The notes beneath the pieces were generated by a model. The model did not search any database. It saw only the letters and a program-made list of their open reading frames with translations, and had not been told where the DNA came from. DNA of 64,000 bases from the IMG/VR virus record IMGVR_UViG_3300035698_022738, positions 1 to 64,000 of that record; one strand, given 5' to 3'. The position numbers and the translations under genes were made by a program. This document shows, piece after piece, positions 1-61,796 of the stretch. The stretch's first letter is position 1. Each line of letters starts with the position of its first letter. Origin of the DNA: a virus.

Positions 1-3000
1 CCAGGCCAGCATGATCAGATTTCTCATGGGAATTGGGCGGATGGAAAAGGGGTTGTCAATTGGAGAGAACGAGTTGTACAGAACGACGGAAAAGCTGTTG
101 GACATCAAATCACGACCAAAGATGAGTTGGAGCAAGTTCTTAGAGGAACAAAAGGTCTTTGGGACCCAAACCCCAACAAGCTCCCTGTCTATATCAATCC
201 TCCAGGATCAATAGATGACTATCTTGAAAAGCTGACCGAGCAGCATAGCATAGAGGCTATAAACGAAAGGCGTTTATTTGTTTTTATGGTAGACAACAAG
301 ACTAGAGCTCTCGTCCTGCCAAGTGATATCACTTGGCAGGATTCCCACTGGGCACTTGCTGACTCTGTCTCAGGTCAGATACGGGGAGGACAGCCAGGGT
401 TCCTTTTAGGAGAGCGGGGAAATGTTTCAGATCAGGTGAATAACCTGTTGGATGGCTCAGTGCATGGGCGTGTTTATTTCAAAGAACCGTCTACGGAAGA
501 CTTTAATCTTAAGCTACAGATTGAAAGAATTGAGTTCAATATTGACTATGCTGGTGTTGTGAACACAAGAAACGAAAATTTTGCGTTCAATCTCGACTAT
601 GGGGATCCCTCTATCGGTGTTCAGTCGGGGGACGCTCGTGATAAGGCCTATGATAATATCTACGCTGCTATGGAGCAGCTCTCTAAGTTTGGGCTTGCCG
701 ATGATACTCAAGTTTTGATCCGTGATTGGTCGTTATCAGACGGTGTGCTCACAACTCTCAAACATCTTCCAGGTCAACACGATCAATTCTCTCATGAAAG
801 TTGGGCAAGGCAGGGAGTATTGTCAGGGTTTGAAGACTTTATTCAAGAGGATTACAGAGGACCCAGACCTGAGAGTTCGAGTAAATACGATGAGATGAGG
901 AATCATTATCTACTCCCTCCGGAGGCAGACAGTCCGATCATGGAAGTAAATGACCTGGCCGGAAGTGCCGCCGTTGAGGGGACAAAGAAATTTGTTCAAT
1001 ACCTATACGCTCCGGATGATCCAGATAAATGGGATGAGGACTACTGGTATGAACTCTCGTGGGATGCCGCACAAAAGATTGGAGAATCTTTTGATCCAGA
1101 GATTATAGAGGGTGAGTGGGGAGCTGACTTTTTCAGTGATGGGTACTTTACCGGAGACAAATTCAAAGACCGGGTGGATGATCTCATCAACGGCTGGAAT
1201 GAGCGCATGCCAACAAGTAATCTCACAGGTTTGTCTATGATGGAAGTAGCATCCGACCTTTTTGGTGTTGGTGAATCTGAATTCCAGAAAAATGAAAAGC
1301 CGATGTATGCCGGGGAAGAAGAGGGTAGTGAGAGGAGTGTCGCAGTTAGGGAGAGCCTGCCTCTGGGAGATGTGAGATATTCATTTCCGTTTGAAGAAGC
1401 TTGGAGAGATATGGAGATTCTGCCTCTCGGCTTTCCGACTGACTTCGAGTTTGCAGATGAGAGTAGAGCTGCAACCAGGTACATGCTTGGTAAGATGTAT
1501 GAGAATACTCAAACAGAGTTAGAGGCCGCAGGGGTAGAGAGTGTTATACTTTTCAGGGGGGTTCCGGCGCACAGGTTGGGAGATACTGAGACAGGGGCTG
1601 TCATTGAAATTGAGTCAAATACTCTGACAAGTTGGACAACTAACCCAGAGGTGGCTGCTCAGTTTGGAAGACGGATCGTAGCCGTAGTTCCAAGGGATCG
1701 TATTTTGTCTACCGCAAAAACAGGATTTGGAACATACCCACAGGCAGAGGTTGTGCTCATTGGCGGAATGGGGGGAGATCAAGCTCTTGTTTTGGATACA
1801 CCTGAAGCTGAGAGGATACAAGGTGGAATCTTTGGGGGTGCGTTCAAGCATCTCCCTGGTCAGCATGAACAGATTTCACATGGCAATTGGGCGGACGGCA
1901 GTTTAGAAGGCGATCCTATCCAGACCTCCGACATGTTTATTGTCGATGGCCGTGTGTGTGCATCTATCTTACGGGAGACTAGGGGCTACCATTCAGTTCA
2001 TCCCAATCAAATAGGAGTCTATATCAATCCAGAGAGCTCCCAGGATTATTTGGAAACTCTGAAAGCCCAGAATGGCGACTTGGAATACTACCCGAAGTTT
2101 GAAGTAAGAGTGCTCTATAACCCTAAGACAAGAGCTTTGATCTTGCCCTCCGATCCGATCTACCAAGACTCTCATCAAATGCTCGCTCAGGCCGTTGTGG
2201 GGCGTGATTTGGGGAGCATTGAATTTGATGAGTACGATTCGGGTGACTCCCTAGAAGCATCCTATGTGGGCAATGATTTACTGGACTCTTCGGTGCATTT
2301 GGTATTAGAGATTGACCCAGATGCGGGGTTTGTATTTACAGAGGTTGGAGCAAGTGTTCCCTTTGCCGGAGCAAGTGGAGAAAAGGCCTGGGATAACATC
2401 TATGATGCCTTTGATGCTCTGCACAAGTGGGGCCTGCCAGCGGAAACAAAGGTTGAAGTCTTTGGAGGGAGTTCCTTCAGAGATGTATTGAATACCACCC
2501 TCAAACATCTCCCAGGACAGCATGAACAGGAATCTCACGGAAACTGGGCGGATGGGCGGCCTTCCCTTCCGAGAGGTGCCATCACTGATATTGAGACAGT
2601 AGACAAAGTTTTGTCGAATGTGACAGGGCTCTGGAAGGCAAATGATGAGTCGGATGGGGTGTATATAAACACTCCCCTTGACCAGTATGTCGAAGTCCAG
2701 AAGGAGTTGAAATCATCTTTTGGGGAACCAATGGCATATTTGCCAGCTCTATTTGATCCAAAAACAAAGGCATTGATTTTTCCGAGAAGCCTCGTCTTTG
2801 ACACTCGACATGGAGGGATTGCAAAGAGTGTAACAGGCAATGATGGCGTCACAGAAAAGTACACGACAGATAACCCGCTATTCATTGATTTGATTGATAC
2901 TGAGCGGGAGCTTTTGGACAGGTGTGTACATTTGGAAGTTTTCCTTCGTCCTTCAGAGGATGGGAAAGTCTTGATTCCGGAGGTCACAGCTAATATAGAT

Positions 3001-39888: not shown

Positions 39889-40423
39889 TCTCGTTATACA
39901 ATATAAGCAAGCATGCCGGGAGGTCCTGGGGGCCTCTGTCAGGGTTGCCAAAAAACACTTCGAGAAATTTAATCTTGTGGAAGGTAGCCTGGCTCGGGAA
40001 GGTGTCTCACCCAGGCACTTTGCATTTTCTGTCGTGAAATATTGGAGACCATTCGTAGAATCAAAGGGTTGGCGAAGTCTCCCCATCAACATTTTCCTCG
40101 GGAAGAAAGCTCGTGACAGATACTTTGATGAGATCATCGAAAAGCCATATCTCAATCTGGGGTTCTCCGAGAAAACAAGAACTGAGTCCAATGTCCTGGC
40201 CGATGAGATATGCGTTGGTCGATATGTGATTGAGAGTTACATCTACTACGATTTGGAAGTCAGCCCAGAAGAAGCCATAGGGAATTTGAGGCTTTCAGAG
40301 GACTGGCAATTTGCCATGGAACAAGGCCAGCGACCAGTTCAAAAAGCTGCTCGGGCTCTCTGCTCTTTGTACGGGATAGACAGCAAATCATCTAACTACA
40401 ATCGATTGGCGGAGGATGCATGA
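39869..40423 (+). CDS. Hypothetical replication-module protein (start uncertain)
   Basis: ORF between two helicases; TTG start after GGAGAGG; ATGA overlap with the next gene. Confidence 0.55.
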   Translation: MPLKEPDLVIQYKQACREVLGASVRVAKKHFEKFNLVEGSLAREGVSPRHFAFSVVKYWRPFVESKGWRSLPINIFLGKKARDRYFDEIIEKPYLNLGFSEKTRTESNVLADEICVGRYVIESYIYYDLEVSPEEAIGNLRLSEDWQFAMEQGQRPVQKAARALCSLYGIDSKSSNYNRLAEDA

Positions 40424-41724
40424 AAGAGCAATATGGGTGGAGCCTTGAGTTCCGGCGCAGGATTATTGCCCTATGCCTCGATCCTACATGGTTCTCAAGT
40501 TTTGGTGTGTTAGTTATCAAACCAGAATTTTTTGATCTGGAAGAGGAGCGTGAAGTTGTCACAGAAATTATTGATTTTTACGAGAAATATCAAAGGGCTC
40601 CATATGAGGACGAGCTGCTGACAATATTCGATGGAGAGGACGATATATTTTCTGACCTTGTGGAAGAATGCTTTGACCTTCTGGAAGTGGGGGACCTTGA
40701 ATTTGCCAAGGACAGCTCCCTGCAATTTGCTAAAGAGCAAGCCATGAAAAATGCGATCCTTGCCTCTGCTGATGACATTAAGGGCGGGGACTTGTCAAAG
40801 CCAATTGAACGGGTCGAAGAGGCTATGCACGTCGGCTTGGATATCAATGATCTTGGCCTGTCCCTGAAGGATGACAGGAGTTGGGCTTATGAGGAACGGT
40901 CAGACAACAAGATGATGACTGGCTGGCATTTGGTTGACATCATGCTTGAGGGAGGTCTTGGCCCAGGTGAATTGGGAGTTATCCTGGGGTCAACAAATGT
41001 TGGCAAGACCAGAGCTCTCATCAACATCGGAGTCGGGGCCTCTGGAATTGTAGGTAGGGCAACTGTTGGACATGTGACGTTGGAGTTGTCTGCTCGAAAA
41101 GTTGCCAAGAGGTATGCAGCTCGGACGGTCTTCCGGTGGATTGGTACAGAGGACCCCGATGAGTATTTGGATGAGTTCCACGAATCTACTGCGTTCAAGA
41201 TGCCGGGGAACATTTACATAAAAGAGTTCCCAACTTCATCTGCCAGTGCGCGTGAGGTAGACATTTGGATAGAGCGTCTGAAGATGTCTGGGGTTGAACT
41301 TGATCTGCTCATCGTAGACTCTCCGGATGAGATGGCACATGAATCTATCGGAGAATATCGGCACAACATCGGCCATACGTTTAAGCTGCTTCGGGCCATT
41401 GGGATCAAGTGGGATATCCCCGTGTGGGTAGCTGCCCAGGGAACCAGAGACAGCCTATCGAAAGAAGTCGTGACCCTCAAGGATATTGCTGAGAGCTTTG
41501 ACAAGGCTCGGATAGCTGATGTTGTTCTGGCCCTATGCCAAACCGTTGCTGAAGAAGAAGATGAAAAGCTACGTTTGTTTGCGGCAAAGGTCAGGGACGG
41601 CGATAAGGGTTGGATGGTAGAATGTCATACTGACAGCGATAGTCATGCAATAATTTCTGAGAGTTTTATAACCCGGTCTGAAATGGCAGAGCGGAAAAAC
41701 GAAAGAATGCAGAGTAGGATGTAG
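40420..41724 (+). CDS. DnaB-like (T4 gp41-type) replicative helicase
   Basis: GSTNVGKT Walker A, TLE, LIVD, AAQ, AES..KAR.AD, KVRDG. Confidence 0.9.
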   Translation: MKEQYGWSLEFRRRIIALCLDPTWFSSFGVLVIKPEFFDLEEEREVVTEIIDFYEKYQRAPYEDELLTIFDGEDDIFSDLVEECFDLLEVGDLEFAKDSSLQFAKEQAMKNAILASADDIKGGDLSKPIERVEEAMHVGLDINDLGLSLKDDRSWAYEERSDNKMMTGWHLVDIMLEGGLGPGELGVILGSTNVGKTRALINIGVGASGIVGRATVGHVTLELSARKVAKRYAARTVFRWIGTEDPDEYLDEFHESTAFKMPGNIYIKEFPTSSASAREVDIWIERLKMSGVELDLLIVDSPDEMAHESIGEYRHNIGHTFKLLRAIGIKWDIPVWVAAQGTRDSLSKEVVTLKDIAESFDKARIADVVLALCQTVAEEEDEKLRLFAAKVRDGDKGWMVECHTDSDSHAIISESFITRSEMAERKNERMQSRM

Positions 41725-43041: not shown

Positions 43042-43252
43042 CATGTTTCCAGGGATCGATCCCTTGATTGGTGGGGATTCTGCTTTGTACAGAAGCCACA
43101 TTGCCTCAGCGATAGATATTCCTGAGTACAAATCCTATCTCTATTTGACTGAGTCTTGTTGGGTGCCATCCACAAAGACAATGCCCAACCGATGGATAAG
43201 GTTCTGGCACAAAGTCTTTTTTGGGTTCCGGTGGGAGGCACCAAAAGAATGA
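43031..43252 (+). CDS. Hypothetical protein
   Basis: Overlaps neighbours at both ends (coupled). Confidence 0.5.
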   Translation: MRDDMFPGIDPLIGGDSALYRSHIASAIDIPEYKSYLYLTESCWVPSTKTMPNRWIRFWHKVFFGFRWEAPKE

Positions 43253-44181
43253 TCGAAAGTTGGCTCGAACAGAACTTTGATACATTGCTGGCACGGGACG
43301 GGCAAGAGATCAGGATCAATTGCCCGTTTTGTGCTGGGGGTGATACGGATCACCACTTGTATGTCAATGTCTATGACGCCCCTGTGGCTCATTGCTTCAA
43401 GTGTGAATGGAGAGGCAATCATTATCAGTTGCTCATGCAATGCGGGATGTTTGAGACAGCTCGTGATGTATTTGATGTCTTGGAGGGTAGAGGTACTCCA
43501 GACGTTGGAGAGTTTTCTTCTTTGGCAGATAGACTGTCTCTAACGGATAAGTTGCTTGATACCCCGCAGGACCTTGAGATGCCTGACTGGTTTGTACCCT
43601 TCAAGTATGGTGGGAAGTTGGATACTCATGCGGGTATGGTTTTTCGGTACGCTTGTAACAGAATGGACCTGTCTGACATCCTTGCTTATGGAGTTGGCTA
43701 TTGCAAAGACACAACGCATCCGGCAGCTTTCAGGTTGATCCTACCTGTCGAAAGAGGGTTCTGGCAAGGCCGCTCGATATCATCTAATTCAAGGGCAAAG
43801 TATCTATCTACAAGCAGTCCCAAAGGGGATGTATTGTTCAATGCTGGTGCTTTGGATAGTCAGGGGACATTGTACATAGCTGAGGGCATACTGAGTGCTA
43901 TTGCCCTTGGACCAAAAGCTCTTGCAATCCTGGGTAAGAGAGCGACACGAGGTCAGATAAAGAGGATGTTGGCACGAGCTCAGGCCCGAGAGGTCATCAT
44001 AGCTTTGGATGCCGGGGAAGCATACAGTCCTGGGACAATCGAGTTGGCAAAGGCTTTTGCCAATATCGGGGCTCAAGTCAAAATCAGGAATTATGCTTTT
44101 GGGGACCCTGACAATTACACGGAATACACAGACATACCATTTACAGATCGGTATGAGATTGAGGCGGCACTGTCTTTTTAG
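43249..44181 (+). CDS. DNA primase (Zn finger + TOPRIM)
   Basis: CPFC...HCFKC; AEGILSA; IIALDAG; DPD. Confidence 0.85.
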   Translation: MIESWLEQNFDTLLARDGQEIRINCPFCAGGDTDHHLYVNVYDAPVAHCFKCEWRGNHYQLLMQCGMFETARDVFDVLEGRGTPDVGEFSSLADRLSLTDKLLDTPQDLEMPDWFVPFKYGGKLDTHAGMVFRYACNRMDLSDILAYGVGYCKDTTHPAAFRLILPVERGFWQGRSISSNSRAKYLSTSSPKGDVLFNAGALDSQGTLYIAEGILSAIALGPKALAILGKRATRGQIKRMLARAQAREVIIALDAGEAYSPGTIELAKAFANIGAQVKIRNYAFGDPDNYTEYTDIPFTDRYEIEAALSF

Positions 44182-49498: not shown

Positions 49499-49527
49499 TT
49501 GACTTTACATGTAACATGTGGTATACT
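49499..49527 (+). promoter_or_regulatory. Strong sigma70-type (early) promoter with extended -10
   Basis: TTGACT-17 nt-TATACT with TG; AT-rich upstream; spacer contains ACATGT-A-ACATGT. Confidence 0.8.
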
Positions 49528-49921: not shown

Positions 49922-50033
49922 GACTTTTGTATCCGTGATTGCACTGATGAGTGACTAACGTCTCATCACAGCGACATCAAACGCAGGCTATCGCTGTACG
50001 CCTGAGTGCAATCACGGCTACAAAAGTCTTTTT
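49922..50033 (+). ncRNA. Candidate structured RNA (23-bp closing stem, two inner hairpins, possible pseudoknot)
   Basis: GACTTTTGTA-T-CCGTGATTGCACT pairs with AGTGCAATCACGG-C-TACAAAAGTC. Confidence 0.55.
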
Positions 50034-50052
50034 GATTCAAAGCATAGGGGGT

Positions 50053-50487
50053 ATGAAAATGAACATGGCTAACAGGTCTTATGAGTTGGTCAAAGCGGGT
50101 CTCGATAGTATTTCACACTACACTTCTGGTGATTACGCTGCGGTGACCATGTGGCAGGGGATGTCTCGGTTTGCGTTTGTCGATGACCTGATGCAAAAAA
50201 TGGGGTTGGATTGCTTTACCAATCACATTACGGTTTACGGGGAACGCTCGTGGATCGTAGAGTTATACAGCATCCTGGACAGGGAAAAACGCCTTGATGC
50301 CTCAGTGTATCTCAGTTTGGACGTGGGCACAGCTGATGTCAATTCTAAGGTCTGTGTCTCAATAATGATGTCGGACGATGGTTTTGGTCGTTTCATCTAT
50401 CGAGCCAAGGTAACTCAGAAGCAACTGGAAGCTGAGATTGCTGTCATCAAAGAGGCAGCCATTCGATTTGAAATGGGGGAAAAATGA
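50053..50487 (+). CDS. Hypothetical protein (first gene of the early operon)
   Basis: AGCATAGGGGG leader, then ATG. Confidence 0.65.
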   Translation: MKMNMANRSYELVKAGLDSISHYTSGDYAAVTMWQGMSRFAFVDDLMQKMGLDCFTNHITVYGERSWIVELYSILDREKRLDASVYLSLDVGTADVNSKVCVSIMMSDDGFGRFIYRAKVTQKQLEAEIAVIKEAAIRFEMGEK

Positions 50488-52085
50488 GCTGGGAAAAAGA
50501 GGACCTGATCCAGACCCGTTACGGCTGGTATCGGCTTGATACCAGTCACAAAACAAATGTTCATGAGGACTACCTCAGCACGGAGCTTTTCTGGAACGAG
50601 TGGGCGGCATTGAGAGAGTGCATCCAGAACGCTCTCGATGAGGCAGATATTATGTCTCAGTTGCAGGGTGGGGAAATCCACGATTACATTAGCATCAAAC
50701 GTCGTGGGGAACGAGTTATCCTGGCTGATCGTGGTCGGGGTGTTGACGTTGAGAGTATCCTCTTAATTGGCAAGTCCGGAAAACGTGGGGCTGGCCTTCG
50801 AGGGGATAAGGGTGAGGGTCAGTTGATGTCTTTTCTGGTGTTCACTCGTCTTGGGATTGACATTGAAATGTTTTCACGAGACTGGCTGGCCCGTCCTCGT
50901 TTCGAGAATTTCAACGGTAGCGATGCCAACACCAATAAGGTGTTGGTTGTGGACTTTTACCGATGCACTGATACCGACAGCCAAAAGGCTCTCAAAGAGG
51001 GTTCGGTCTGGCATATCGAGCGGACATCAGAAATTGATGAGATGGTAGCAACCATCGGGGATTATTTCCCTGAAATCTCACCAGCTGCCAAACGACAGGC
51101 CAAACGTCGGAAAGAGCAAGAGCAAGAGGAACGCTGGCGGGAACAGGATGCTCATAGCAGAAAACAACAAAGTCGAGAGCGGAATGAAATCCGTCGGAAA
51201 TCAACGACGGTCAACAAGCCAGTGTTCCGGCCTCGAAAAGGAACTCCCGCTCGGTTGTACTTGAGAGGGATTTACGTCAAGGACCTGACCGACAGCCAAA
51301 AGGCTCTCTGGTCTTACAACCTTGTGGATGCCTCGATTGACAGGGACCGCAAGATGGTCAACGAGCTTGAGTTGCTCGATGACATAGCCGAGAAAATGGG
51401 GTCTGAGTACGTGACTCCTTCGATGGCTCGGGAGTATTGGGAGCACGCCAAAGCTCAGGACAGGGCGTTGTATCTTGAGTTCAGAGTGGTCCCCCGACCT
51501 CAGAACGACGAAGTGTTTGAAATGTGGGCCAAGGCGTTCTGGAAAGTCTTTGGCCCGAAGACTTGTATCTACACCAACAGCTATGCCGCTGGTGACGCTG
51601 CGCGTGAGGGGTGGAACGTGATACCCCTTGACAATATTCAGTTGCGGTTTGCTCTTGACTCGTTGGGGGTCAAGACTGATAAGCAAGCCGCTGGTTTCAC
51701 CTCTGGCGACTTCAAGCTGGTTGACAAGGTGACACAGCGGGAAACCGATATGATAACCAAGACCTTGGAGATTTTCGATCTGCTGGGTCTCGCTCAGAGC
51801 TTCTCTCGGTTCCATGTTGTTGGAACCATACTTGGTGATGAGGAGACAGAGGCCTTTGCTTATGCGGGTGAGATATACGTCACTCGTAAGGCCTTCAAGC
51901 GAGGGGGCTTGCATGTCTTGGAGTGTGCCCTGCACGAAAAGGGGCATATTGAAACTCTGACGCAGGACTTTACGCGGGGATTTACTCACTGGTTCCTGCA
52001 CAACTGGGTGCAGGCGTTACGTGGAACCGATCTCAATCGTCAAGTTGAGATCGCTCAGAAAATTGCAGAACTAGAATCAATCTAA
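50484..52085 (+). CDS. GHKL (Hsp90/MORC-like) ATPase fused to a C-terminal HExxH metallopeptidase-like domain
   Basis: ALRECIQNALD (N-box), DRGRG (G1), GDKGEG (G2); ALHEKGH near the C-terminus. Confidence 0.75.
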   Translation: MSWEKEDLIQTRYGWYRLDTSHKTNVHEDYLSTELFWNEWAALRECIQNALDEADIMSQLQGGEIHDYISIKRRGERVILADRGRGVDVESILLIGKSGKRGAGLRGDKGEGQLMSFLVFTRLGIDIEMFSRDWLARPRFENFNGSDANTNKVLVVDFYRCTDTDSQKALKEGSVWHIERTSEIDEMVATIGDYFPEISPAAKRQAKRRKEQEQEERWREQDAHSRKQQSRERNEIRRKSTTVNKPVFRPRKGTPARLYLRGIYVKDLTDSQKALWSYNLVDASIDRDRKMVNELELLDDIAEKMGSEYVTPSMAREYWEHAKAQDRALYLEFRVVPRPQNDEVFEMWAKAFWKVFGPKTCIYTNSYAAGDAAREGWNVIPLDNIQLRFALDSLGVKTDKQAAGFTSGDFKLVDKVTQRETDMITKTLEIFDLLGLAQSFSRFHVVGTILGDEETEAFAYAGEIYVTRKAFKRGGLHVLECALHEKGHIETLTQDFTRGFTHWFLHNWVQALRGTDLNRQVEIAQKIAELESI

Positions 52086-52096
52086 AGGAGATTTCA

Positions 52097-52336
52097 ATGC
52101 CACGGATCGTAAGAAATTTTTTCATCTCTGGTGAGGTGGATGGACGCAAGACAGCGATTTCGGTCGGACCCGCCTCGAAAGAGGGGGGGTTTGATGTGCA
52201 GTTCCTCATTCGGAGTGCGGGTGAGGTAGCTCAGTCGGTGAGGGTTATCGGTGAGGCCTTCGAGGGGGGTGATCTCAAGCTCACTGTTCTCGATGAGAAC
52301 GGAAATGACATTCATGTACACCGGACTGTCCGGTAA
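52097..52336 (+). CDS. Hypothetical protein
   Basis: AAGGAG RBS. Confidence 0.7.
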   Translation: MPRIVRNFFISGEVDGRKTAISVGPASKEGGFDVQFLIRSAGEVAQSVRVIGEAFEGGDLKLTVLDENGNDIHVHRTVR

Positions 52337-52416
52337 CGTCGTTTGGGCGACGTAAAATAGCCGTCAAGCCCAAAGCGTAGAGAGCTCCGAGTTGGAAGTT
52401 GGAGCTCTCTGGTCGG
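52337..52416 (+). ncRNA. Pistol self-cleaving ribozyme
   Basis: P1 CGUCG/CGACG; pseudoknot UUUGGG/CCCAAA; AAAUAG; P2 CCG/CGG; GCGU; P3 AGAGAGCUCC/GGAGCUCUCU; GG^U site at 52412/52413. Confidence 0.88.
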
Positions 52417-52448
52417 GGATAAGCCCGAGCATAGGATGGGAGTGAAAA

Positions 52449-52754
52449 ATGAATGAATTTCTGGAACGTCACATTGTAGTATGTCCGATGGAAAGACCGA
52501 CATTTGTGGTACGTTGTCCCCTCTGTGGTTTCGAGACAGAGGTCGATGACCATCTGTCGGAGCACATCCTCGAAAAGCATGAGCTTGAAGCTCGTGATGG
52601 GACAGTTGATCTCAGCTCTCTGAGTGAGGATGTCAGAGAGAACATCAAAGAGACCCTGGCTGATTGGGATTTGGATGCGTCTCTCTGCGAGGAAAGTACA
52701 CAAGAATATGATGATTGGTGTCAGGGGATGGCGGAAAAGGAGTGCAAGAAATGA
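52449..52754 (+). CDS. Hypothetical protein with a CxxC..H..H Zn-finger-like motif
   Basis: CPLC...HILEKH; GGGAG RBS. Confidence 0.65.
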   Translation: MNEFLERHIVVCPMERPTFVVRCPLCGFETEVDDHLSEHILEKHELEARDGTVDLSSLSEDVRENIKETLADWDLDASLCEESTQEYDDWCQGMAEKECKK

Positions 52755-53038
52755 GCAAAGACATATATGAACTTGTTTTAACGGACTGTAATTTCGAGCG
52801 GCTGATAGATGCCTATGAGGCGTTTTGTACATTGTTCTTGGTACAGCCTGAAGTGTATGTACGAGGGGTTTTCAAGAACAACGAGGGCGGAGAAATAGTT
52901 GCTCTTTCGTCGGATATCAAGGTCTTGAATGTGAATCCTTTGGTTGGACTTGTGAACAATGGGAACCTTGAACTTGTTCCAAGTAGCCAATGTGAGTGGT
53001 CTATGTATCTCAATCGAAAGAGAGGGTTACAAAAATGA
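52751..53038 (+). CDS. Hypothetical protein
   Basis: AAGGAG RBS, ATGA overlap. Confidence 0.6.
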   Translation: MSKDIYELVLTDCNFERLIDAYEAFCTLFLVQPEVYVRGVFKNNEGGEIVALSSDIKVLNVNPLVGLVNNGNLELVPSSQCEWSMYLNRKRGLQK

Positions 53039-53313
53039 AATATAAGTGGCTGGCAGAGGCAGGTATCGCTGGGTGCCTGCCTGGGTTTACTTCCATCTGT
53101 GATACCAAGGCAGATGCTATTCAGACTGTTACAGACCTTTTCGACCTTTCACGTTATGGACGTGTTGCCAAGGACCTGTCACAGGCTGGTGATACCGTTT
53201 CGGATCGTGATGAGTCGGAACATGATCTGATGCGTTTTCAGGTTTACAAGGTAGTCCCGGCTGACCTGAATGTGGAGAGCTGGGATGAATTGGAGTTCAA
53301 TGATGATCTCTAA
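53035..53313 (+). CDS. Hypothetical protein
   Basis: ATGA overlap start. Confidence 0.6.
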   Translation: MKYKWLAEAGIAGCLPGFTSICDTKADAIQTVTDLFDLSRYGRVAKDLSQAGDTVSDRDESEHDLMRFQVYKVVPADLNVESWDELEFNDDL

Positions 53314-53701
53314 TCGGATAGACAGGGCGCGGAAAGCTGTCGAGTTTTGCCACGTTGGTACTGAGCGGAAAGGGATCATCCAGACTGTGTTTGTCCCAGG
53401 TCACGAGGGTCGGAAATATCGAGTGATCCTCAAGCGCGGAAAGGGATTGGTCACTCTGGAATGTCAGCGGATGTTGCCCTATGACACGTCTGTCCTATGT
53501 CCAGGGGGCTGTAAGACGGTTTGTTACCATTGTATGGCAGCTCTCATCTTTACGGCTCACCAGGCTGGATTTGATACCTCGTTCTGTGAGTCGAAAGAGG
53601 ATGCTCTCAGGCTCAAGAATTTGCACGAGGGTGCGCTGATGATGCGAGTGGTGAGCAAGCATGCACCATCAAACGGATGTTTTGCTGTATTCGGCAAATA
53701 G
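53300..53701 (+). CDS. SWIM-type Zn-finger-like protein
   Basis: Y.V...C...CP...CYH..AAL. Confidence 0.55.
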   Translation: MMISNRIDRARKAVEFCHVGTERKGIIQTVFVPGHEGRKYRVILKRGKGLVTLECQRMLPYDTSVLCPGGCKTVCYHCMAALIFTAHQAGFDTSFCESKEDALRLKNLHEGALMMRVVSKHAPSNGCFAVFGK

Positions 53702-53865
53702 GGTAGTTCCGGCGACTTTGGAAGTCACGTCCAGGGGACAATACCTCATTGACGCTATGAAGCCTAACTAGCAGACGTGGATATGGGGCTGGCATAGAAT
53801 GGTCGTAAGGAGTCCGGCTAGTGTACAGCCGTCGCCGTCAATCAATTCAAGCATGGGAGATTAAA

Positions 53866-54570
53866 ATGGAAAAATTGTTTCCGACATGGGATGAAAAGCC
53901 AACAGATTCTGGGCGTATGATTGCTTATGTTTCCGGACATTTCCGGTACTGGACTGGGAACTCGTGGAACCAATCCACGAGCTACGCGCATAACGTCAAG
54001 ATTCCGAGGCTGGGTCTTGACAGTGAGACACGGGACAAGTGCTATGCTGCACTGGATATTCCACAGGCTTTTGATGAGGTAAATGAAATTCTTGAAGACT
54101 TCGCTGTCCGGCACAACTACGCCTGGAAGATTTCGTTTAATGACCGCTCTGGGGGCTACCTTGTACTCTATCAGGGTGGGGTGAAAGACAACAAGTCATT
54201 TGTCTATCCAGTTCGAGGAGTGGGAGAGATGGACTGGGTGGACGGTGATTTTCTGACGGACTTGGTTGATGTGATATGGGATTTCGATGAGACTTGTCAG
54301 AGGGCTGTCGAAGTCTTTGTCGAATTTGCAGTGTCACATACCGTAGTGGAAGAAGAGATTATGGTTTCCAAAACAGTCCTTGTGGCAATCTCAAATGAGG
54401 ATGCAAACCGCAGGGAGTCCAACAGGCTTTGGGAGTCGGCCTGTCAGTTCGATGGGTACGATCCGGATGAAAAGTTTGTATGCTTTTCGGATGAAAATCC
54501 GTTCACCTCTGAGTACAACGCACGTATGATCGAGCGTCTGGAATACAGTCGGCAAGGCGACGTTAAATAG
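53866..54570 (+). CDS. Hypothetical protein
   Basis: AAGCATGGGAG leader, then ATG at 53866. Confidence 0.7.
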   Translation: MEKLFPTWDEKPTDSGRMIAYVSGHFRYWTGNSWNQSTSYAHNVKIPRLGLDSETRDKCYAALDIPQAFDEVNEILEDFAVRHNYAWKISFNDRSGGYLVLYQGGVKDNKSFVYPVRGVGEMDWVDGDFLTDLVDVIWDFDETCQRAVEVFVEFAVSHTVVEEEIMVSKTVLVAISNEDANRRESNRLWESACQFDGYDPDEKFVCFSDENPFTSEYNARMIERLEYSRQGDVK

Positions 54571-54615
54571 CCATCAGGCCTTGCGCGTCAGGCCCCCTCT
54601 CGGGGCCTGGGTTGG
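54547..54615 (+). ncRNA. Pistol self-cleaving ribozyme
   Basis: P1 GUCG/CGAC; pseudoknot GCAAGG/CCUUGC; UUAAAUAG; P2 CCA/UGG; GCGU; P3 CAGGCCCC/GGGGCCUG; GG^U at 54611/54612; covaries with copy 1. Confidence 0.88.
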
Positions 54616-54642
54616 AACACAAATCAAGCATGGGAGACTAAA

Positions 54643-55164
54643 ATGGCAAATGTGTTGATTTTCACAAAGGAAGAATTTGAGGCTGCTTTGCCTTGTCACA
54701 AAGATACAAGCAAGCAGCTATGGACTTATGAGGGGATCGAGAACAATGAGCACTGCTATTCGATAAACATTCCGGGGGGGAAACCTCATCGGGTGTTTAT
54801 CCGGTCCTCTGTGGGTCTTTCAGGTTTGTCAGCTACGTGTGGAGAGGATAGCATTCGTATCTGGCTCGAAGAGAAACGGCCTATCGGTATCGGGAATCGA
54901 GAGGCCTGGGCCGGTGTTAAGAAAAAACAACGCTGGGTGACACGAGTCACAGGCTGGCAAGAGCGTGTTGTGAATGTTTGTCGGGAGACATACCGGCTTG
55001 GAGTCAACAAAGTGAATCTGGAAAGTGCAGCTCCACTTTGTCCGAAGTGTCAAACAGAGATGCGGATCAGGTTCCGCAAATCTGATGACAATCCCTTTTG
55101 GGGATGCCCTGGGTTCCCAGCTTGCAGGGGGACCGCAAATGTTAAAGTTTCAGCGGGTCTTTGA
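54643..55164 (+). CDS. Hypothetical protein with a C-terminal topoisomerase C4 Zn ribbon
   Basis: CPKC..M..R....FWGCPGFPACRGT. Confidence 0.75.
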   Translation: MANVLIFTKEEFEAALPCHKDTSKQLWTYEGIENNEHCYSINIPGGKPHRVFIRSSVGLSGLSATCGEDSIRIWLEEKRPIGIGNREAWAGVKKKQRWVTRVTGWQERVVNVCRETYRLGVNKVNLESAAPLCPKCQTEMRIRFRKSDDNPFWGCPGFPACRGTANVKVSAGL

Positions 55165-55171
55165 GTTGTCC

Positions 55172-55200
55172 TTGATGGATTTTGCGGGTTGTGGTACAAT
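55172..55200 (+). promoter_or_regulatory. sigma70-type promoter
   Basis: TTGATG-17 nt-TACAAT with extended TG, intergenic. Confidence 0.6.
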
Positions 55201-55247
55201 TGACCCTAGACTCAAGTAGAGTTAGCACAAGCATAGGAGAGTGTAAA

Positions 55248-56954
55248 ATGTCTAGTAAGACAATGGTATGCCCCGCTTGCGGAGCAGAGATGGTTCTGCG
55301 GAATGGCCGCCGTGGCAAATTCTTTGGCTGTTCCACATTCCCCAAATGTCGCAAGACCGTGGATGCGGCAAACGGAGCATCTGGGATATTCCCAGTCAAA
55401 AAAGAGGTGCCAGCTGTAATGCACCCCCCTACTCCTCAGCAAGAGGAAATCTTTCAGGCCATAGCCAGTGATGATTGCGACGATATTGTCATTGAGGCTG
55501 GCCCCGGTTCTGGAAAGACCTACACGATTGTCCAGTCCCTCCAAAAAACGGCTGGTCGTGGAAAGGTGGTCGTGGTTGCATTCAACAAGGCCATTCAGCT
55601 AGTCCTTAACCGACTAGCACCTGACCACGTTCTCACAAGCACGTTCCACAGCCTGGGGTTCTCAATTTGCCGCAACGCAGCAAGCGGTCAGATTTCTGTA
55701 GACCAGAACAAAAAATACGGGATTGCGAAGAATATTCTGTTCCCCAATGATGCCGACAAGGCAGCTAGGGGAGCTGTCGTGAAACTGGCGAGTATCTGTC
55801 AGAACACACTGGCTGACCCGACAGACCAGGCCCTGATGTACCACCTGATGGATGAATACGACATTGGGGATGTCTTGAAAGAAAAACACCAGCCAGCTAT
55901 GGTTGTCGATGCTGTCCCCACGTTGTTGGCTCACAGTGCAAGCTTGGAACTTTTAATCGACTTTGATGACATGATCTGGATGCCTGTCATCAAGGGTATG
56001 AAACCAACTGTGTTTGATTGGGTCAATGTCGATGAGGCGCAGGACTGCAATGCGTGCCAGATCGAGTTGATTAAGATGATCACTTCCCCCTATGGGCGGG
56101 TCAATGCAGTAGGGGATCGACACCAGTCGATCTATGGGTTCCGTGGGGCTGACTCGCACGCCATTCCCCGGCTCATATCTGAGTTGAACAACACCTCGGT
56201 GCTACCCCTGAATATTACTTTCAGGTGTCCAACATCTCACGTTGCTCTGATCCAGCAGCTGGTTCCAGAAATCACTGCTCGGGACGGAGCTCCGGAAGGA
56301 ATCATCAATGAGGGCGTGCGTTTGCACGAGATGTATGATCAGGCAAAGCCAGGGGACTTGATCCTGAGTCGGATCAATGCCCCTCTGGCTGGGGATTGCC
56401 TTGAATTTCTCCGCAGGGGGAAAAAGGCAGTCGTGATGGGTCGGGACATCGGCAAAAATCTTATCACCTTGATGGATCGGGTTGATACGGAAAAAACCGA
56501 TGACATGATCAAGGGCCTTGCTGATCACCTTGATGTGGAACGTACTCGGTTTGCTTTGGCTGGCAAAGAGCACAAGATAGCTGCTCTTGAGGACAAGGTG
56601 GAAACCATTTTCGTGCTGGCTGAGGGGACAAAGTTGGTCAGTGAAATCGTCCAGAAAATCAATGCGATATACAGCGACACTGCTGAGGGCATTGTGCTCT
56701 CGACAGTTCACCGGGCCAAGGGACTGGAAGCTGAGGATGGTTACATTCGTAAGCCGTCCCTCTTTCCTCACCCACGAGCTAAGAGTGAAAAAGACATCAT
56801 CCAGGAGCGCAACATTCTGTACGTTGCTCTTTCCCGGTTCAAAAAATCACTCTCATTTGTCGAAGGAAAATCACCCATTTCGATCTCATCAGAATTAGTG
56901 ACAACAGAGGCAGCTGATCCAGTAGCTGCCTCTGAGGCGCAGGGGCTGCTATGA
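55248..56954 (+). CDS. UvrD/Rep-like SF1 helicase with an N-terminal topoisomerase Zn ribbon
   Basis: CPAC..FFGCSTFPKC; AGPGSGKT, VDEAQD, GDRHQSIYGFRG, STVHRAKGLE, YVALSR. Confidence 0.92.
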   Translation: MSSKTMVCPACGAEMVLRNGRRGKFFGCSTFPKCRKTVDAANGASGIFPVKKEVPAVMHPPTPQQEEIFQAIASDDCDDIVIEAGPGSGKTYTIVQSLQKTAGRGKVVVVAFNKAIQLVLNRLAPDHVLTSTFHSLGFSICRNAASGQISVDQNKKYGIAKNILFPNDADKAARGAVVKLASICQNTLADPTDQALMYHLMDEYDIGDVLKEKHQPAMVVDAVPTLLAHSASLELLIDFDDMIWMPVIKGMKPTVFDWVNVDEAQDCNACQIELIKMITSPYGRVNAVGDRHQSIYGFRGADSHAIPRLISELNNTSVLPLNITFRCPTSHVALIQQLVPEITARDGAPEGIINEGVRLHEMYDQAKPGDLILSRINAPLAGDCLEFLRRGKKAVVMGRDIGKNLITLMDRVDTEKTDDMIKGLADHLDVERTRFALAGKEHKIAALEDKVETIFVLAEGTKLVSEIVQKINAIYSDTAEGIVLSTVHRAKGLEAEDGYIRKPSLFPHPRAKSEKDIIQERNILYVALSRFKKSLSFVEGKSPISISSELVTTEAADPVAASEAQGLL

Positions 56955-57592
56955 ATGAGTTGGGTGAAAGAGTTCATGGCGATCTCAAGAATCTGGTGCA
57001 CTGGATGGGGGCAAACAGCAAGATGTCCGGTTGGCGCATGCAGCCGGATGAGCTTGAGGGTGAGTGTTGGTTGGCTGTTGCACGCTGTCTTGATCGGTAT
57101 GGGAAGTCCATAGAATACCCAGAGCTGCTCAGGGCATGCCGACAGTCGATGAAATTTGCCGTGATAGACGCCTCACGTTTATCTGGGCGTGAGACTGAAA
57201 TGTACTTAGAAGACGCATTAGATACACAAGGGGAGGAAAGTTGGGATGAATCAATTCCAGACGATCTCATCTATACCCCTGAGTTACACCTTGAGGCAAT
57301 GGAACTGGTAACATCTCTGTCTGGTTCTCTTTCAGATACTGACAGAGATGTTCTGGACGCCATTTTGGGAAAGAATAAAAGGGTTCCTATCTATCTTGAC
57401 CTGTGGATCAAGCGGTCAAGAGCTGCATTTTCGGGTAGGTCTGTGTCGACGAATATCTACGTTATTTCAAGGGCATTGTGCCTGTCGGAGTGGACCATCC
57501 GGAGAAGTTTGAGGCGTATAAAAGCCTCGTCAGAGGCGCATAGGGGGAGAAGGAGAAATGGATCTGACAGACCATGTATCGAAGGAGTTTAA
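56951..57592 (+). CDS. Putative phage RNA polymerase sigma factor
   Basis: DELEGECWLAV..C..RY (region 2-like); LSDTDRDVL...ISRALCLSEWTIRRSLRRIK (region 4 HTH-like). Confidence 0.55.
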   Translation: MNELGERVHGDLKNLVHWMGANSKMSGWRMQPDELEGECWLAVARCLDRYGKSIEYPELLRACRQSMKFAVIDASRLSGRETEMYLEDALDTQGEESWDESIPDDLIYTPELHLEAMELVTSLSGSLSDTDRDVLDAILGKNKRVPIYLDLWIKRSRAAFSGRSVSTNIYVISRALCLSEWTIRRSLRRIKASSEAHRGRRRNGSDRPCIEGV

Positions 57593-58013
57593 TCACGGGG
57601 AGTTGGTCAAGGTAGCTGAAATGATGGGCCTGGCTCCCACCTCTAGGTGGGGAGAACGCAAGCTCGTTGATTCCATCTTTGCCAAATGCAAAAAGGATGG
57701 GGTTCCGGAGCTTTCCCTTCGGGATGACGATCAAAGGCTTTTCACTGATTTTCTGTTCGTTGCTGAGCTCATTGATGAGCCAGAGGATGCTAAGAAATCA
57801 AAGTCAGATGAGGATGCGTTTGACCAAGAGTCTAAGCCGGATTGCTTTATGTTTGCAGATGATAAAGACCCGGCCTGTGGTCGGTGCAAGGTCTATAAGT
57901 TTTGTGTCGATGCCCGGCTCAGGAACCTCCCAGATTGCTTTGGTCACAGGTTTGATTTGGAGACACCGGAATGTCAGCTGTGCATCTATGCACCTGACTG
58001 TAAGATGGCATAG
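57558..58013 (+). CDS. Cys-rich protein with two PDCF..CxxC..C repeats
   Basis: PDCFM..CGRC....C and PDCFG..CQLC....C. Confidence 0.65.
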   Translation: MDLTDHVSKEFNHGELVKVAEMMGLAPTSRWGERKLVDSIFAKCKKDGVPELSLRDDDQRLFTDFLFVAELIDEPEDAKKSKSDEDAFDQESKPDCFMFADDKDPACGRCKVYKFCVDARLRNLPDCFGHRFDLETPECQLCIYAPDCKMA

Positions 58014-58022
58014 GAGAGTAAA

Positions 58023-58517
58023 ATGATTAGAGAACTGAAGTACACTGTGAAGGCGTTTAGGTCCATCTTGTCGGGACCTTTGGGTTGGGTAGTTGCCACA
58101 GAGGATGAGTGGCGACCAGCTGAATTGATGGATTGGTCGTTTAGCTCGTGGTACATCTGTGCTGAGTACCAGAACGGGCGGCACATCCCGTTTCCTGTTC
58201 TGGACGGGGTAAGTGGTAGCTGGTTCCAGAGACGGGCCATTCGAGCAGCTGAGTGGTTGTCAGGAAATTCAGCTTTCCCAAGTGATCCCCCAGACACCTC
58301 AAACTCCGGCATGTGCGTTGTAAGTCCGGGAGCTTTGGGCCTTGAGTCCAGTATTTTGGCGGGTTTGGTAAGGGACACCATTGCTGAGGATTGTCATCAG
58401 CGTGATGCGGGTGTCCGTAGATACAGACATCCAAATATGCAGAGCTTGCATGAGAATACTAAGCTCGGAACAGAAGTCAAAGAGTCTCTGTACAGACATA
58501 TGTACGGCGGGAAGTGA
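58023..58517 (+). CDS. Hypothetical protein
   Basis: AGGAG RBS. Confidence 0.55.
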   Translation: MIRELKYTVKAFRSILSGPLGWVVATEDEWRPAELMDWSFSSWYICAEYQNGRHIPFPVLDGVSGSWFQRRAIRAAEWLSGNSAFPSDPPDTSNSGMCVVSPGALGLESSILAGLVRDTIAEDCHQRDAGVRRYRHPNMQSLHENTKLGTEVKESLYRHMYGGK

Positions 58518-58535: not shown

Positions 58536-58570
58536 GGCACACATCCTAAATCGGGTGTGTGCCTTTTTTT
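58536..58570 (+). terminator. Rho-independent terminator
   Basis: GGCACACATCC/GGGTGTGTGCC stem + T7. Confidence 0.88.
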
Positions 58571-58571
58571 G

Positions 58572-58612
58572 TTGCTCAAAAAATGGTGTGATTCCGTTTA
58601 ATATAGTAGGAG
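58572..58612 (+). promoter_or_regulatory. Putative phage-specific promoter + RBS for the DNA polymerase operon
   Basis: TTGCTCAAAAA...CGTT-TAATATAGT-AGGAG; same spacing as the 6879 copy; directly after a terminator. Confidence 0.6.
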
Positions 58613-58964: not shown

Positions 58965-59224
58965 TGAAAACAATGGGGATTACGAAAGCTCGTGAAAATT
59001 TCACACACCTTGTGACTGAGGCAGCTCAAGAATGTCCGGTTGTCCTGACCAGCCTCAAGGTGCCAAAGGCTGTATTGATTAGCTATAATGCGTGGGTCAG
59101 ATTGAATGATCAGGTGGATGACTTGGAGGATTTGGTCACATATGTTAATCGACGCAATGAGTCATCGACACCATTTGAGAGGTTTGTGAAGGATCACGCA
59201 ATAGAGGGTGAAGATGCTACCTGA
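58964..59224 (+). CDS. Phd/YefM-family antitoxin-like protein (orphan)
   Basis: MKTMGITKARENFTHLV..A...PVVLT....PKAVLISY..W. Confidence 0.82.
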   Translation: MKTMGITKARENFTHLVTEAAQECPVVLTSLKVPKAVLISYNAWVRLNDQVDDLEDLVTYVNRRNESSTPFERFVKDHAIEGEDAT

Positions 59225-61796
59225 TCCCTGCAAAGAGTGCGGGTTACACAAGACTTGCAAAACGCACATGGTGCCGGGATCGGGTTCTGATCATCCGTTA
59301 GTTCTTTTTGTAGGGGAGGCCCCTGGAGCGGAAGAGGATGAAACAGGGGTGGTGTTTATGGGTAAGGCTGGTCAGGTTCTCAGAGAGGCTATCAATCAGT
59401 TGGGCCTCTCTGATGACCAGTATCGTATCACAAATGTTGTACGGTGTCGGCCCCCCAAAAATCGGACACCTCGGGCCAGAGAGATAGAGCTGTGCTCTGA
59501 GTTCCTTTTTGAGGAAATTAAACAGCATCCCCCCAAAGTTATTGTGTTGCTGGGTAACACCCCACTCAAAGCTGTTTTGGGGGAAAACAAGATTAGTGAG
59601 TGGAACGGGCTTGCAGTTCAACGGGGAGATTTTGTGTATGCTCCGGCTTTTCATCCATCAGCGTTCAACTATGGGAACCGGGATCGCCTTGAGGATTGGT
59701 ACGATGCTCTGGAACAAGCGGTGCGTATTGCTCACGGAGAAAAGGTTCCCGATAGGAATGCTGGCTGGGAGTACATCTACCCCAAATCGTATGATGACCT
59801 AGTGGCTATGGAACGCGAGCTGGCAAAAAGTGAGACCATCACCTATGACGTAGAGACTCGATTTCTCAATATTCATGATCCGGAGAACACTGTGATATCT
59901 GTCTCATTTGGGATGGATGGTGTGGCCTGGTCGTTCCCCTTGTATCACACTGAAGGGTCGGAATGGTGGAAGGGAACTCGAATATTGTCGGTGGTTGGTA
60001 TGGTTTTGAACATACTTAGTAAGTCACAAGTAGTAGGGCATAACGTCAAGTTTGATAGGTCAGCTACTCGGAAGTTGTTGGGGCAGGACTTTGTTCCATT
60101 TGGGGACACAATGCGTATCTCTCAGCTGATCGACAGCCAGCCAGGAATACACGGCCTGAAGAGATTGGCTGGCATGAAATTAGGGATGTTTGATTATGAC
60201 CAGGAGTTGACTGATTACACCGACGCTCACCCAGAGGCTAATCCCAAAAAAGGTGGGGACTTCGGGCTGGTTCCACTGAAGAAGTTGCTTCCCTATGGGG
60301 CCATGGATTCAGCGGCAACTTACAGGCTGTATCATTTGTTGTTGTCTGAGTTGACACCGGAACAAACTGTCTTGTACAAGCAGCTCATTATGCCAGCTGA
60401 TGACGCGCTAGCTGAAATGGAATATCGAGGTATTCTGTTGGATACCTATATGGCAGAGCGGTATGAGCGGATATATAAGTTTGTTCGGGAAGAGAAGTAT
60501 AGGGCGGCTATCTTGCAGGACCCCGACGTGCAGAGGTTTATAGCACGTAAGCAAAAGATTGTGGATATTGAGCTCAAAAAACGTCGGGAAAAGAGTACAC
60601 GTAAGCTCAAGGACAGAAAATTCTCATTCAACGCAAACAGCACAGAAATGATGGGGGAAGTGTTTTTTACGATCAAGGATCACGTCCCCCCCGCACTGAC
60701 AAAAACTGGAAAGCCCTCAATGGATGCCGGACTGTTGGCTCAGAGTCCAGTTGCGGATGATCCACTATTTCAGCTCTATCGCAAGTATCGGCTCTATGGG
60801 TCGATGCTGTCCAAGTATCTTGGTCCTGCCTCTAAAGGGCTAAGGGATTGGCGGACTTGTGTCGATGGGCGGATACACACTCATTTCAATGTCGGGGGTG
60901 CAACAACTGGCCGATTATCTTCGAGTCAGCCAAACCTCCAGAACATTCCGTCTCCGGAAAAAGAGCAAGGGACCCTGCTTGAGAGCTTGCCTATTCGTAA
61001 CTTGTTCAAGCATACCCATCCCGGTGGATGTCTGGCCTCAGTTGACTTTTCTGGTATGGAATTGAGGATCATGGCCTCAATGTCTGAGTGCCTACCCATG
61101 ATCAAGGTATTCAGGGAAAACGGGGACCTGCATAGGTTTGTTACCTCAGCTGCGTTTTCCATCCCTGAAAAAGATGTAACAAAGACAAAGCGACGTACTG
61201 GGAAGTCGATCAATTTTTTAATCATCTACGGGGGCGGACCTGAGTCTTTGCACAGAAAATATGGGGTCCCTTTGAGTCAAAGCAAGCGTCTAATGAAAAA
61301 CTACTTCAAGAGGTTCCCCGAAGTCCATGAGTTTCACAATAAGGTTATTGACTTTGCAGAACGAAATGGCTATGTAGAGACACCCTTTGGGCGTCGCAGG
61401 TATCTCAGGAATATCAACTCTGTGATCTCTTACAAAAAAGAGGCGGATGAGAGGGCGGCTATCAATATGCCTATCCAGTCTCTGGCCTCTGATATATTGT
61501 TGTGCTGTATTGCAATCCTGGAGCGTAAGCTGATAAAAGGTGGGTTCAAGTCTCGGATGGTCAACACGGTACACGACTCCATCACCTTTGATGTATACCC
61601 AGGTGAGTTGGATACGATCTTGGTTATGGCAAGAGACATCATGGTCAATATCAAATACTATGCCAAGCGGTACTTCCCTGGTCTTGATTTTAGCTGGCTG
61701 AAAGTGCCTCTCAATGTGGATGCTGAGGTAGGGTCCCATTACGGGAGCATGAGCGATTATGAGATACCTGGGGTGGTGAGAGGGAGAGGAAAATGA
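59208..61796 (+). CDS. Family A DNA polymerase with an N-terminal family-4 uracil-DNA glycosylase domain and 3'-5' exonuclease
   Basis: CxxC, GEAPG, NVVRCRPP, HPS (UDG4); DVET, HNVKFD, YGAMD (exo); DFSGMELR, RRTGKSINF..IYG, VHDS (pol motifs A/B/C). Confidence 0.95.
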   Translation: MKMLPDPCKECGLHKTCKTHMVPGSGSDHPLVLFVGEAPGAEEDETGVVFMGKAGQVLREAINQLGLSDDQYRITNVVRCRPPKNRTPRAREIELCSEFLFEEIKQHPPKVIVLLGNTPLKAVLGENKISEWNGLAVQRGDFVYAPAFHPSAFNYGNRDRLEDWYDALEQAVRIAHGEKVPDRNAGWEYIYPKSYDDLVAMERELAKSETITYDVETRFLNIHDPENTVISVSFGMDGVAWSFPLYHTEGSEWWKGTRILSVVGMVLNILSKSQVVGHNVKFDRSATRKLLGQDFVPFGDTMRISQLIDSQPGIHGLKRLAGMKLGMFDYDQELTDYTDAHPEANPKKGGDFGLVPLKKLLPYGAMDSAATYRLYHLLLSELTPEQTVLYKQLIMPADDALAEMEYRGILLDTYMAERYERIYKFVREEKYRAAILQDPDVQRFIARKQKIVDIELKKRREKSTRKLKDRKFSFNANSTEMMGEVFFTIKDHVPPALTKTGKPSMDAGLLAQSPVADDPLFQLYRKYRLYGSMLSKYLGPASKGLRDWRTCVDGRIHTHFNVGGATTGRLSSSQPNLQNIPSPEKEQGTLLESLPIRNLFKHTHPGGCLASVDFSGMELRIMASMSECLPMIKVFRENGDLHRFVTSAAFSIPEKDVTKTKRRTGKSINFLIIYGGGPESLHRKYGVPLSQSKRLMKNYFKRFPEVHEFHNKVIDFAERNGYVETPFGRRRYLRNINSVISYKKEADERAAINMPIQSLASDILLCCIAILERKLIKGGFKSRMVNTVHDSITFDVYPGELDTILVMARDIMVNIKYYAKRYFPGLDFSWLKVPLNVDAEVGSHYGSMSDYEIPGVVRGRGK

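Follow-up and report, generated by a model that had tools for sequence, protein, structure and literature searches.

The DNA considered here, which we call the window, is the first 64 kb (64,000 nucleotides, nt) of the 96,851-bp IMG/VR record IMGVR_UViG_3300035698_022738, which is classified as linear and which CheckV rates as about 53% complete. On its + strand the window carries two short elements, at 52337-52417 and 54547-54616, which an earlier note made from the sequence alone had read as two pistol ribozymes that divide an early polycistronic transcript. Judged by everything that can be read at the level of sequence, both elements are bona fide pistols, and their placement between genes is the one found for most phage pistols. 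The pistol class reportedly goes back to Weinberg et al. 2015.

The assignment to the class is based on a search with Rfam (cmscan, Pistol model RF02679, gathering cut-off 34.5 bits), a check which the earlier note had itself suggested, and on structures read from the sequence with the help of a purpose-written structural matcher that covers P1, the pseudoknot, P2, P3 and the junction. The element at 54547-54616 (pistol 2) matched the Rfam model over its full length, with 60.7 bits (E 1.4e-8), while the element at 52337-52417 (pistol 1) was matched at 52337-52396 with 42.2 bits (E 2.4e-4), so that both scores lie above the cut-off. Nothing else in the window reached the Rfam threshold, and the 96.8-kb record has no further pistol. 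When the limit was relaxed to E<=1, Rfam added nothing credible in the way of other ribozymes or structured RNAs, neither in the window nor in the remaining 33 kb of the contig.

In pistol 1, P1 is formed by 52337-40 and 52349-52 (CGUC/GACG), the pseudoknot by UUUGGG at 52342-47 and CCCAAA at 52369-74, with six Watson-Crick pairs out of six, and P2 by CCG at 52361-63 and CGG at 52414-16 (3 bp). P3 is a perfect 11-bp helix (52378-88 with 52401-11) with a 12-nt loop, and the predicted cut is G52412^U52413. The Rfam alignment drops this P3 and treats a GUUGGA in the P3 loop as if it were the junction. Because the real P3, junction and P2 were read from the sequence and found by the structural matcher, we place the true 3' end of pistol 1 at 52417 and not at 52396. 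The fold has a z-score of -4.4. Pistol 2, which was also passed by the matcher, has P1 at 54548-50 and 54559-61 (GUC/GAC plus a G-C pair), a pseudoknot in which GCAAGG at 54552-57 pairs with CCUUGC at 54579-84 (again six of six pairs Watson-Crick), a 3-bp P2 made of CCA at 54571-73 and UGG at 54613-15, and a 9-bp P3 (54588-96 with 54602-10), with the predicted cut at G54611^U54612.

In the crystallised pistols the active site consists of purine-32, the G33-C41 pair, G40 and G42, and position 32 gives an active state both as A and as G (PMC6154101). With the env25 numbering mapped to the Rfam model via the single G-C pair at model positions 32-40, the equivalents in pistol 1 are A52367, the pair G52368-C52376, G52375 and G52377, and those in pistol 2 are G54577, the pair G54578-C54586, G54585 and G54587. 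The conserved A-rich linker reads AAAAUAG in pistol 1 and UAAAUAG in pistol 2. In pistols generally, the loop of the P1 hairpin provides one strand of the 6-bp pseudoknot and the P2-P3 junction the other, P2 pairs with the strand directly 3' of the cleavage dinucleotide, P3 varies in length between a conserved GCGU and the junction, and self-cleavage is site-specific and Mg2+-dependent. In the class as published, the junction is strictly 2 nt long, usually GU, it joins P3 and P2 and it holds the scissile bond; cleavage proceeds at a rate of about 10 per minute at physiological Mg2+ and leaves 2',3'-cyclic phosphate and 5'-OH ends (PMC4604425). The architecture claimed in the earlier note, from P1, the pseudoknot, P2 and P3 to the G^U junction, was thus found in both elements together with the catalytic nucleotides. 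The covariation that it had described was also there, as the pseudoknots of the two copies differ at four of the six pairs and the P2 helices at one pair, with every one of these differences being compensatory, and P3 being 11 bp long in one copy and 9 bp in the other.

Both ribozymes lie at gene boundaries, exactly in the manner in which they had been described before. Directly upstream of pistol 1 there is a 79-amino-acid (aa) gene from the list of open reading frames (ORFs), at 52097-52336 (+), with a match to phrog_37977 (E 4e-12), and its TAA stop codon at 52334-36 immediately precedes the first base of the ribozyme, 52337. Pistol 2 overlaps the gene in front of it: it encodes the last eight codons and the TAG stop (54568-70) of a 234-aa gene to which no function has been assigned (53866-54570, +, also from the ORF list), and this TAG sits 24 nt inside the ribozyme. 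The cuts had been expected about 30-36 nt before the next ATG, and the measured distances are 36 nt for pistol 1 (ATG at 52449) and 31 nt for pistol 2 (ATG at 54643). Each of these two ATGs is preceded by GGGAG. In the predicted 5'-OH leader after pistol 1 (52413-52448, +), read from the sequence and from a ViennaRNA fold of the cleaved product, this Shine-Dalgarno sequence follows a 5-bp hairpin at the extreme 5' end (52413-52428). The predicted 5'-OH leader after pistol 2 (54612-54642, +) holds the ribosome-binding region AAGCAUGGGAGACUAAA, whose only exact occurrences are at 53849 and 54626.

A placement of this kind could be a peculiarity of one contig, and it therefore matters how other phage pistols are placed. 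IMG/VR was scanned with a degenerate core pattern that fits both window pistols, and the matches were filtered by P1, pseudoknot, P2, P3 and junction, which gave 87 non-redundant pistols, the two window copies included; the Rfam model confirmed all 50 of the 50 survey records that were re-tested. As the survey is pattern-selected and its ORF calls are crude, the percentages given here are approximate: in 78% of the 87 pistols, an ORF that has the same direction as the ribozyme and is 50 codons or longer has its stop between -12 and +31 nt from the 5' end of the ribozyme; random positions in those loci give 11%, and the opposite strand gives 8%. An ATG-initiated ORF begins 16-60 nt past the cut in 53% of the pistols, compared to 17% at random, and the median distance from the cut to the next ATG is 40 nt. 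The stop codon of the upstream ORF lies inside the ribozyme in 38% of the surveyed pistols. The core itself carries stop triplets, namely a conserved UAA (model positions 18-20) and a UAG or UAA (model positions 29-31), often with a further UAG at 22-24 (in the window, 52353-55 and 54564-66), and such triplets shut two or three reading frames in 74 of the 83 unique cores. An ORF that enters a pistol therefore terminates within about 31 nt.

The genes next to the surveyed pistols do not form a recognisable set. They are small (median of about 95 aa), they fall into many small unrelated clusters with no partner gene family among them, and none is related to the genes of the window. What is conserved is thus the position of the ribozyme relative to ORF boundaries and not the identity of its neighbour. 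The exact core common to both window pistols was found nowhere else in IMG/VR, and surveyed ribozymes vary in total length from 61 to 104 nt. Two to four pistols are present in 13 of the 50 pistol-bearing records, always co-oriented and within 0.3-2.4 kb. With this pattern in view, the layout of the window, with one stop codon abutting and another overlapped by a ribozyme, leaders of 31-36 nt and two copies 2.2 kb apart, is the norm of the family. Arrays of three or four co-oriented pistols occur in the IMG/VR records behind L072 (G088), L084 (G091), L094 (G096) and L114 (G102), with spacings of about 0.3 to about 1.2 kb and with small ORFs separating the members; they stand at 3717, 4490, 5388 and 5792 in G088 and at 91845, 92117 and 92408 in G091.

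Between the two ribozymes of the window the ORF list gives four small, tightly packed genes on the + strand (52449-52754, 52751-53038, 53035-53313 and 53300-53701), for which only weak zinc-finger matches were obtained in Pfam and none in PHROGs. They are followed by a 164-nt non-coding spacer (53702-53865, +), which starts right after the stop codon at 53699-53701, and then by the 234-aa gene. The product of that gene has 81 homologs, mostly metagenomic, the best one with a name being in a metagenome-assembled genome of Omnitrophica. The aligned homologs share its N-terminus, and the listed matches cover at most about three-quarters of its length. A conserved N-terminal domain of about 170 aa has invariant H25, R27, Y28, W34 and N35 and an SGGYLVLY motif, and the C-terminal part of about 55 aa, the one reaching into pistol 2, is not matched by the best homologs. 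No close relative was present in a collection of 5.8 billion proteins, where the best matches had 57% identity over 38% of the length and 49% over 71%.

Downstream of pistol 2 there is a 173-aa zinc-ribbon protein (54643-55164, +; Pfam Zn_ribbon_Top1, E 2.8e-6) and then a 590-aa UvrD-type helicase with an N-terminal zinc ribbon (55182-56954, +; Pfam UvrD-helicase, E 2e-24, and Zn_ribbon_Top1, E 1.3e-13). Homologs of this helicase, with 31-40% identity, were found in 16 IMG/VR loci. In some of the phages with such homologs (L005-L009, L012; about 4530-4930), one or two tRNA genes lie approximately 70-390 nt upstream of the helicase match, and they may be mentioned as another RNA-processing element in a comparable position.

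All these genes belong to the DNA-replication module, which occupies 40-64 kb and which includes a DnaB-like helicase (40420-41724), a Toprim-like protein (43156-44181), a family A DNA polymerase, PolA (59208-61796), and numerous small ORFs without known function. The best matches of PolA are in Bacillus phages of the SPO1/CP-51 type, with an identity of only 28-29%, and blastn of the contig against 50,697 phage records gave no match. The contig represents a phage lineage without close relatives. The GC skew is positive throughout the window, and 97 of the 123 chosen ORFs across the contig are on the + strand. A 40-nt stretch at window positions 7-46 recurs at 95419-95458 of the contig with 87.5% identity, possibly as a repeat connected with the termini of the genome.

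The genes from 49951 to 58517 have one orientation and mostly overlap or abut. In consensus scans, the best sigma-70-like promoter match is at 49499-49527 (+; TTGACT-17-TATACT with TG), a tentative candidate for the start of the unit, and the strongest intrinsic-terminator-like hairpin of the region is at 58536-58573 (+; 11 bp, 7 of them GC, followed by a run of seven T), a candidate for its end. The same scans revealed no convincing promoter or terminator between the two pistols. It is thus likely, as far as gene arrangement can indicate, that both are on one transcript; given the co-oriented genes and the lack of such sites between the ribozymes, cleavage would segment a polycistronic RNA. 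After the terminator-like hairpin there is a stretch of about 630 nt with promoter-like sites at 58936 and 59060, and then the DNA polymerase gene. A repeated phage promoter motif was also sought among the 39 intergenic regions of the contig, and none was found. As to the word "early" in the earlier note, it is a guess, with gene content being all that stands behind it.

These observations can be put together in the following way. A transcription unit on the + strand would probably start near 49.5 kb and end with the terminator-like hairpin at 58.5 kb. Each ribozyme, once transcribed, would fold its P1, pseudoknot, P2 and P3 and cut at G^U, that is at 52412^52413 and 54611^54612. Pistols cut near their 3' end; nearly all of the ribozyme, about 76 nt in pistol 1 and 65 nt in pistol 2, would stay with the upstream segment as a pseudoknotted 3' cap ending in a 2',3'-cyclic phosphate, and the downstream segment would start with a 5'-OH and 5 nt of ribozyme, 31-36 nt before the start codon. 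The operon RNA would in this manner be split, with no protein required, into at least three pieces: one ending at 52412, one of 52413-54611 with five genes and the spacer, and one starting at 54612. The decay of each piece, and hence the dosage of its genes, would become independent. From what is generally known, the pseudoknotted cap plausibly hinders 3' exonucleases. In E. coli, the RNase E pathway that depends on the 5' end acts poorly on 5'-OH ends. What becomes of a 5'-OH end differs between hosts, and whether the distal genes gain or lose would accordingly be set by the RNases of the host in question.

We lean, by a modest degree, towards this reading, in which both pistols would be functional and co-transcribed in the mRNA of the replication module, and would segment it by self-cleavage and so uncouple the decay and dosage of its parts. 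The finding that most phage pistols have the same intercistronic placement strengthens it. Of the processing idea of the earlier note, the part that stands is that bona fide pistols lie on the coding strand between co-directional genes in the typical placement; the timing does not go beyond a guess, and the comparison with phage T7 that was drawn there holds for function only.

Several facts weigh on the opposite side. Phage genomes are compact, and any insert between genes is forced to lie near both of them, which explains a part of the placement statistics. The promoter and terminator sites of our consensus scans are no more numerous than in shuffled sequences. The accessibility of the Shine-Dalgarno sequence and AUG, calculated with ViennaRNA, is unchanged by cleavage (0.51 vs 0.50 and 0.65 vs 0.65). 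There is also no pistol in the 12 helicase-homolog loci scanned, nor in 5 whole records, nor in 50 records with homologs of the 234-aa gene, and thus the flanking genes do not need pistols and the distribution of the latter is sporadic. An unmasking of the ribosome-binding site that depends on cleavage was considered separately, and it is not predicted, as the accessibility is equal before and after the cut.

The sporadic distribution is what one would expect if pistols were selfish or near-neutral passengers that have spread into intercistronic spacers and are tolerated there with no adaptive role, and we regard this as unlikely, yet as the alternative to be taken most seriously. Apart from the absence of pistols from all 5 helicase-homolog records and all 50 records with 234-aa homologs, it is favoured by the unrelatedness of the flanking genes in the survey, by the clustering of pistol copies, and by the stop triplets of the core, which close two or three frames in 74 of 83 cases and would make insertion at the ends of ORFs harmless. 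However, all helices and catalytic bases have been kept despite divergence, with compensatory changes, which argues for selection for an active fold; the bias of strand and position is very strong (78% vs 8% in antisense); and no transposase or repeat structure accompanies the ribozymes.

A second alternative accepts cleavage and reverses its effect. The 5'-OH end could make the downstream segment a substrate for a 5'-3' exonuclease of the RNase J1 type, which would lower distal expression, so that the pistols would serve as a control of polarity. There is a precedent in glmS of Bacillus subtilis, where RNase J1 degrades the 5'-OH downstream product (Collins et al. 2007, summarised in PMC3328962), and Firmicutes are the group in which pistols are commonest (PMC4604425, PMC6154101). 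The nearest relatives of PolA in Bacillus phages, at an identity of only 28-29%, and the strong use of Shine-Dalgarno sequences point in the same direction. On the other hand, the genes downstream of pistol 2 include the helicase and other replication functions that are probably needed, and the terminal 5-bp hairpin on the pistol 1 product would hinder a 5' exonuclease. We thus find this possibility quite improbable.

That the two elements are chance look-alikes or inactive relics which do not cleave is highly improbable. Pistol 1 has only 42.2 bits and an Rfam alignment without P3, and the outermost of the four P2 pairs of the model is mismatched in both copies. Yet both scores exceed the curated cut-off, pistol 1, when correctly folded, has a perfect P3 of 11 bp with the GU junction and P2 following exactly after it, and all catalytic bases are present. 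Moreover, three of the four model P2 pairs is by far the commonest state among pistols that pass the structural test, and 50 of 50 such records also passed Rfam. Finally, it is hardly credible that the pair serves to excise the 2,199-nt RNA 52413-54611, whose five-gene segment an RtcB-type ligase could circularise: two co-oriented ribozymes do bound the segment with the right end chemistry (PMC4604425), and ribozyme-bounded circular RNAs exist in other systems (PMC7761336), but no genes for RtcB, an RNA ligase or an AAA_33 kinase were found in the 96.8 kb of this only ~53% complete record, the segment is like any other row of protein genes, with no hint of replication or mobility, and the pistols of other phages stand at variable distances of 0.3 to 2.4 kb and show no repeat structure.

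The spacer at 53702-53865 deserves separate consideration, since it occupies the same kind of slot as the ribozymes: a stop codon directly precedes it, and it closes with a leader resembling that of pistol 2, its last 27 nt matching the pistol 2 leader at 25 of 27 positions. No ORF was found in it, and no Rfam match at E<=10; its folding is no more stable than that of shuffled sequences (z +0.62 and -0.02). A homolog was found neither in 1.7 Mb of loci nor in IMG/VR or JGI metagenomes, and nine metagenome matches to the 20-mer of its leader are chance matches. The possibility that it is a degenerate pistol or another known ribozyme was rejected, as Rfam gives no match, the fold is ordinary and only the 27-nt leader can be aligned.

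In gene runs like this one, such slots are used by ribozymes of more than one class. Of 18 loci with homologs of the 234-aa gene, two, each from an IMG/VR phage, have a twister-sister ribozyme a small number of genes upstream; the two ribozymes, at L152:2335-2412 and L149:975-1052 (62 and 58 bits), start on the stop codon of a 67-68-aa ORF. Self-cleaving ribozymes of bacteria are known to group around phage-type genes and with one another (PMC4604425, PMC5737381, PMC8782182). One may speculate, with very little confidence, that the spacer is an undescribed RNA which processes itself or recruits an RNase, a third punctuation mark of the operon, and that pistols and stop-anchored twister-sisters would together make up a general system of protein-free punctuation. 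This reading rests on the shared slot, with the stop codon in front and the pistol-2-like leader at the end.

When set beside the published pistol class (RF02679; Harris et al. 2015, PMC4604425), the two window elements have the same architecture, the same catalytic nucleotides and the same phage-genome setting; the occurrence of pistols near phage genes and in phage genomes has itself been published (PMC4604425). Pistol 1 has a longer P3 than the Rfam consensus (11 bp with a 12-nt loop), which is within the length range of the survey. Nothing essential differs, and what is particular is that the carrier is a phage lineage without close relatives.

In the early operon of T7, RNase III cuts between cistrons split a long transcript and leave folded RNA at the 3' side of the upstream pieces. 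The predicted cuts of the window resemble these sites in being intercistronic and in leaving a folded RNA on the 3' end of each upstream piece. They are different in that the pistol cut is intramolecular and needs no protein enzyme, and in the chemistry of the ends, which are 3'-OH and 5'-phosphate for RNase III (PMC3328962) and 2',3'-cyclic phosphate and 5'-OH for pistols. The comparison seems a fair functional analogy and not a sign of kinship. The glmS ribozyme of Bacillus is similar to the pistols described here in that self-cleavage in a 5' leader gives a 5'-OH end which decides the fate of the downstream mRNA (PMC3328962), but it is metabolite-dependent and regulatory, whereas no ligand is known for pistols, which are presumed to act constitutively.

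The processing of polycistronic mRNAs by self-cleaving ribozymes of bacteria and phages has already been proposed (review PMC6765202), and the idea behind that proposal, made for bacterial hammerhead and twister ribozymes, and behind synthetic ribozyme insulators is the same as ours, i.e. fragments of differing stability and translation. It concerns other classes, and our survey extends the positional evidence to pistols. The locus is thus a sound but ordinary case of a known RNA class in the setting typical of it, and the idea of processing is reasonable but not new. As the locus lies on an uncultured metagenomic contig, it is not a convenient test system.

What the locus adds is two intact and divergent pistols in one replication-gene operon. 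The most useful by-product of its analysis is a placement rule for phage pistols with numbers attached: the ribozyme is on the coding strand, its 5' end abuts or overlaps the stop codon of a small upstream gene, and its cut falls about 40 nt before the next start. This pattern makes the processing hypothesis easy to test with reporter operons. Placement of this kind, often in co-oriented arrays, would be expected of an intercistronic processing signal and bears on the function of pistol ribozymes in phages.

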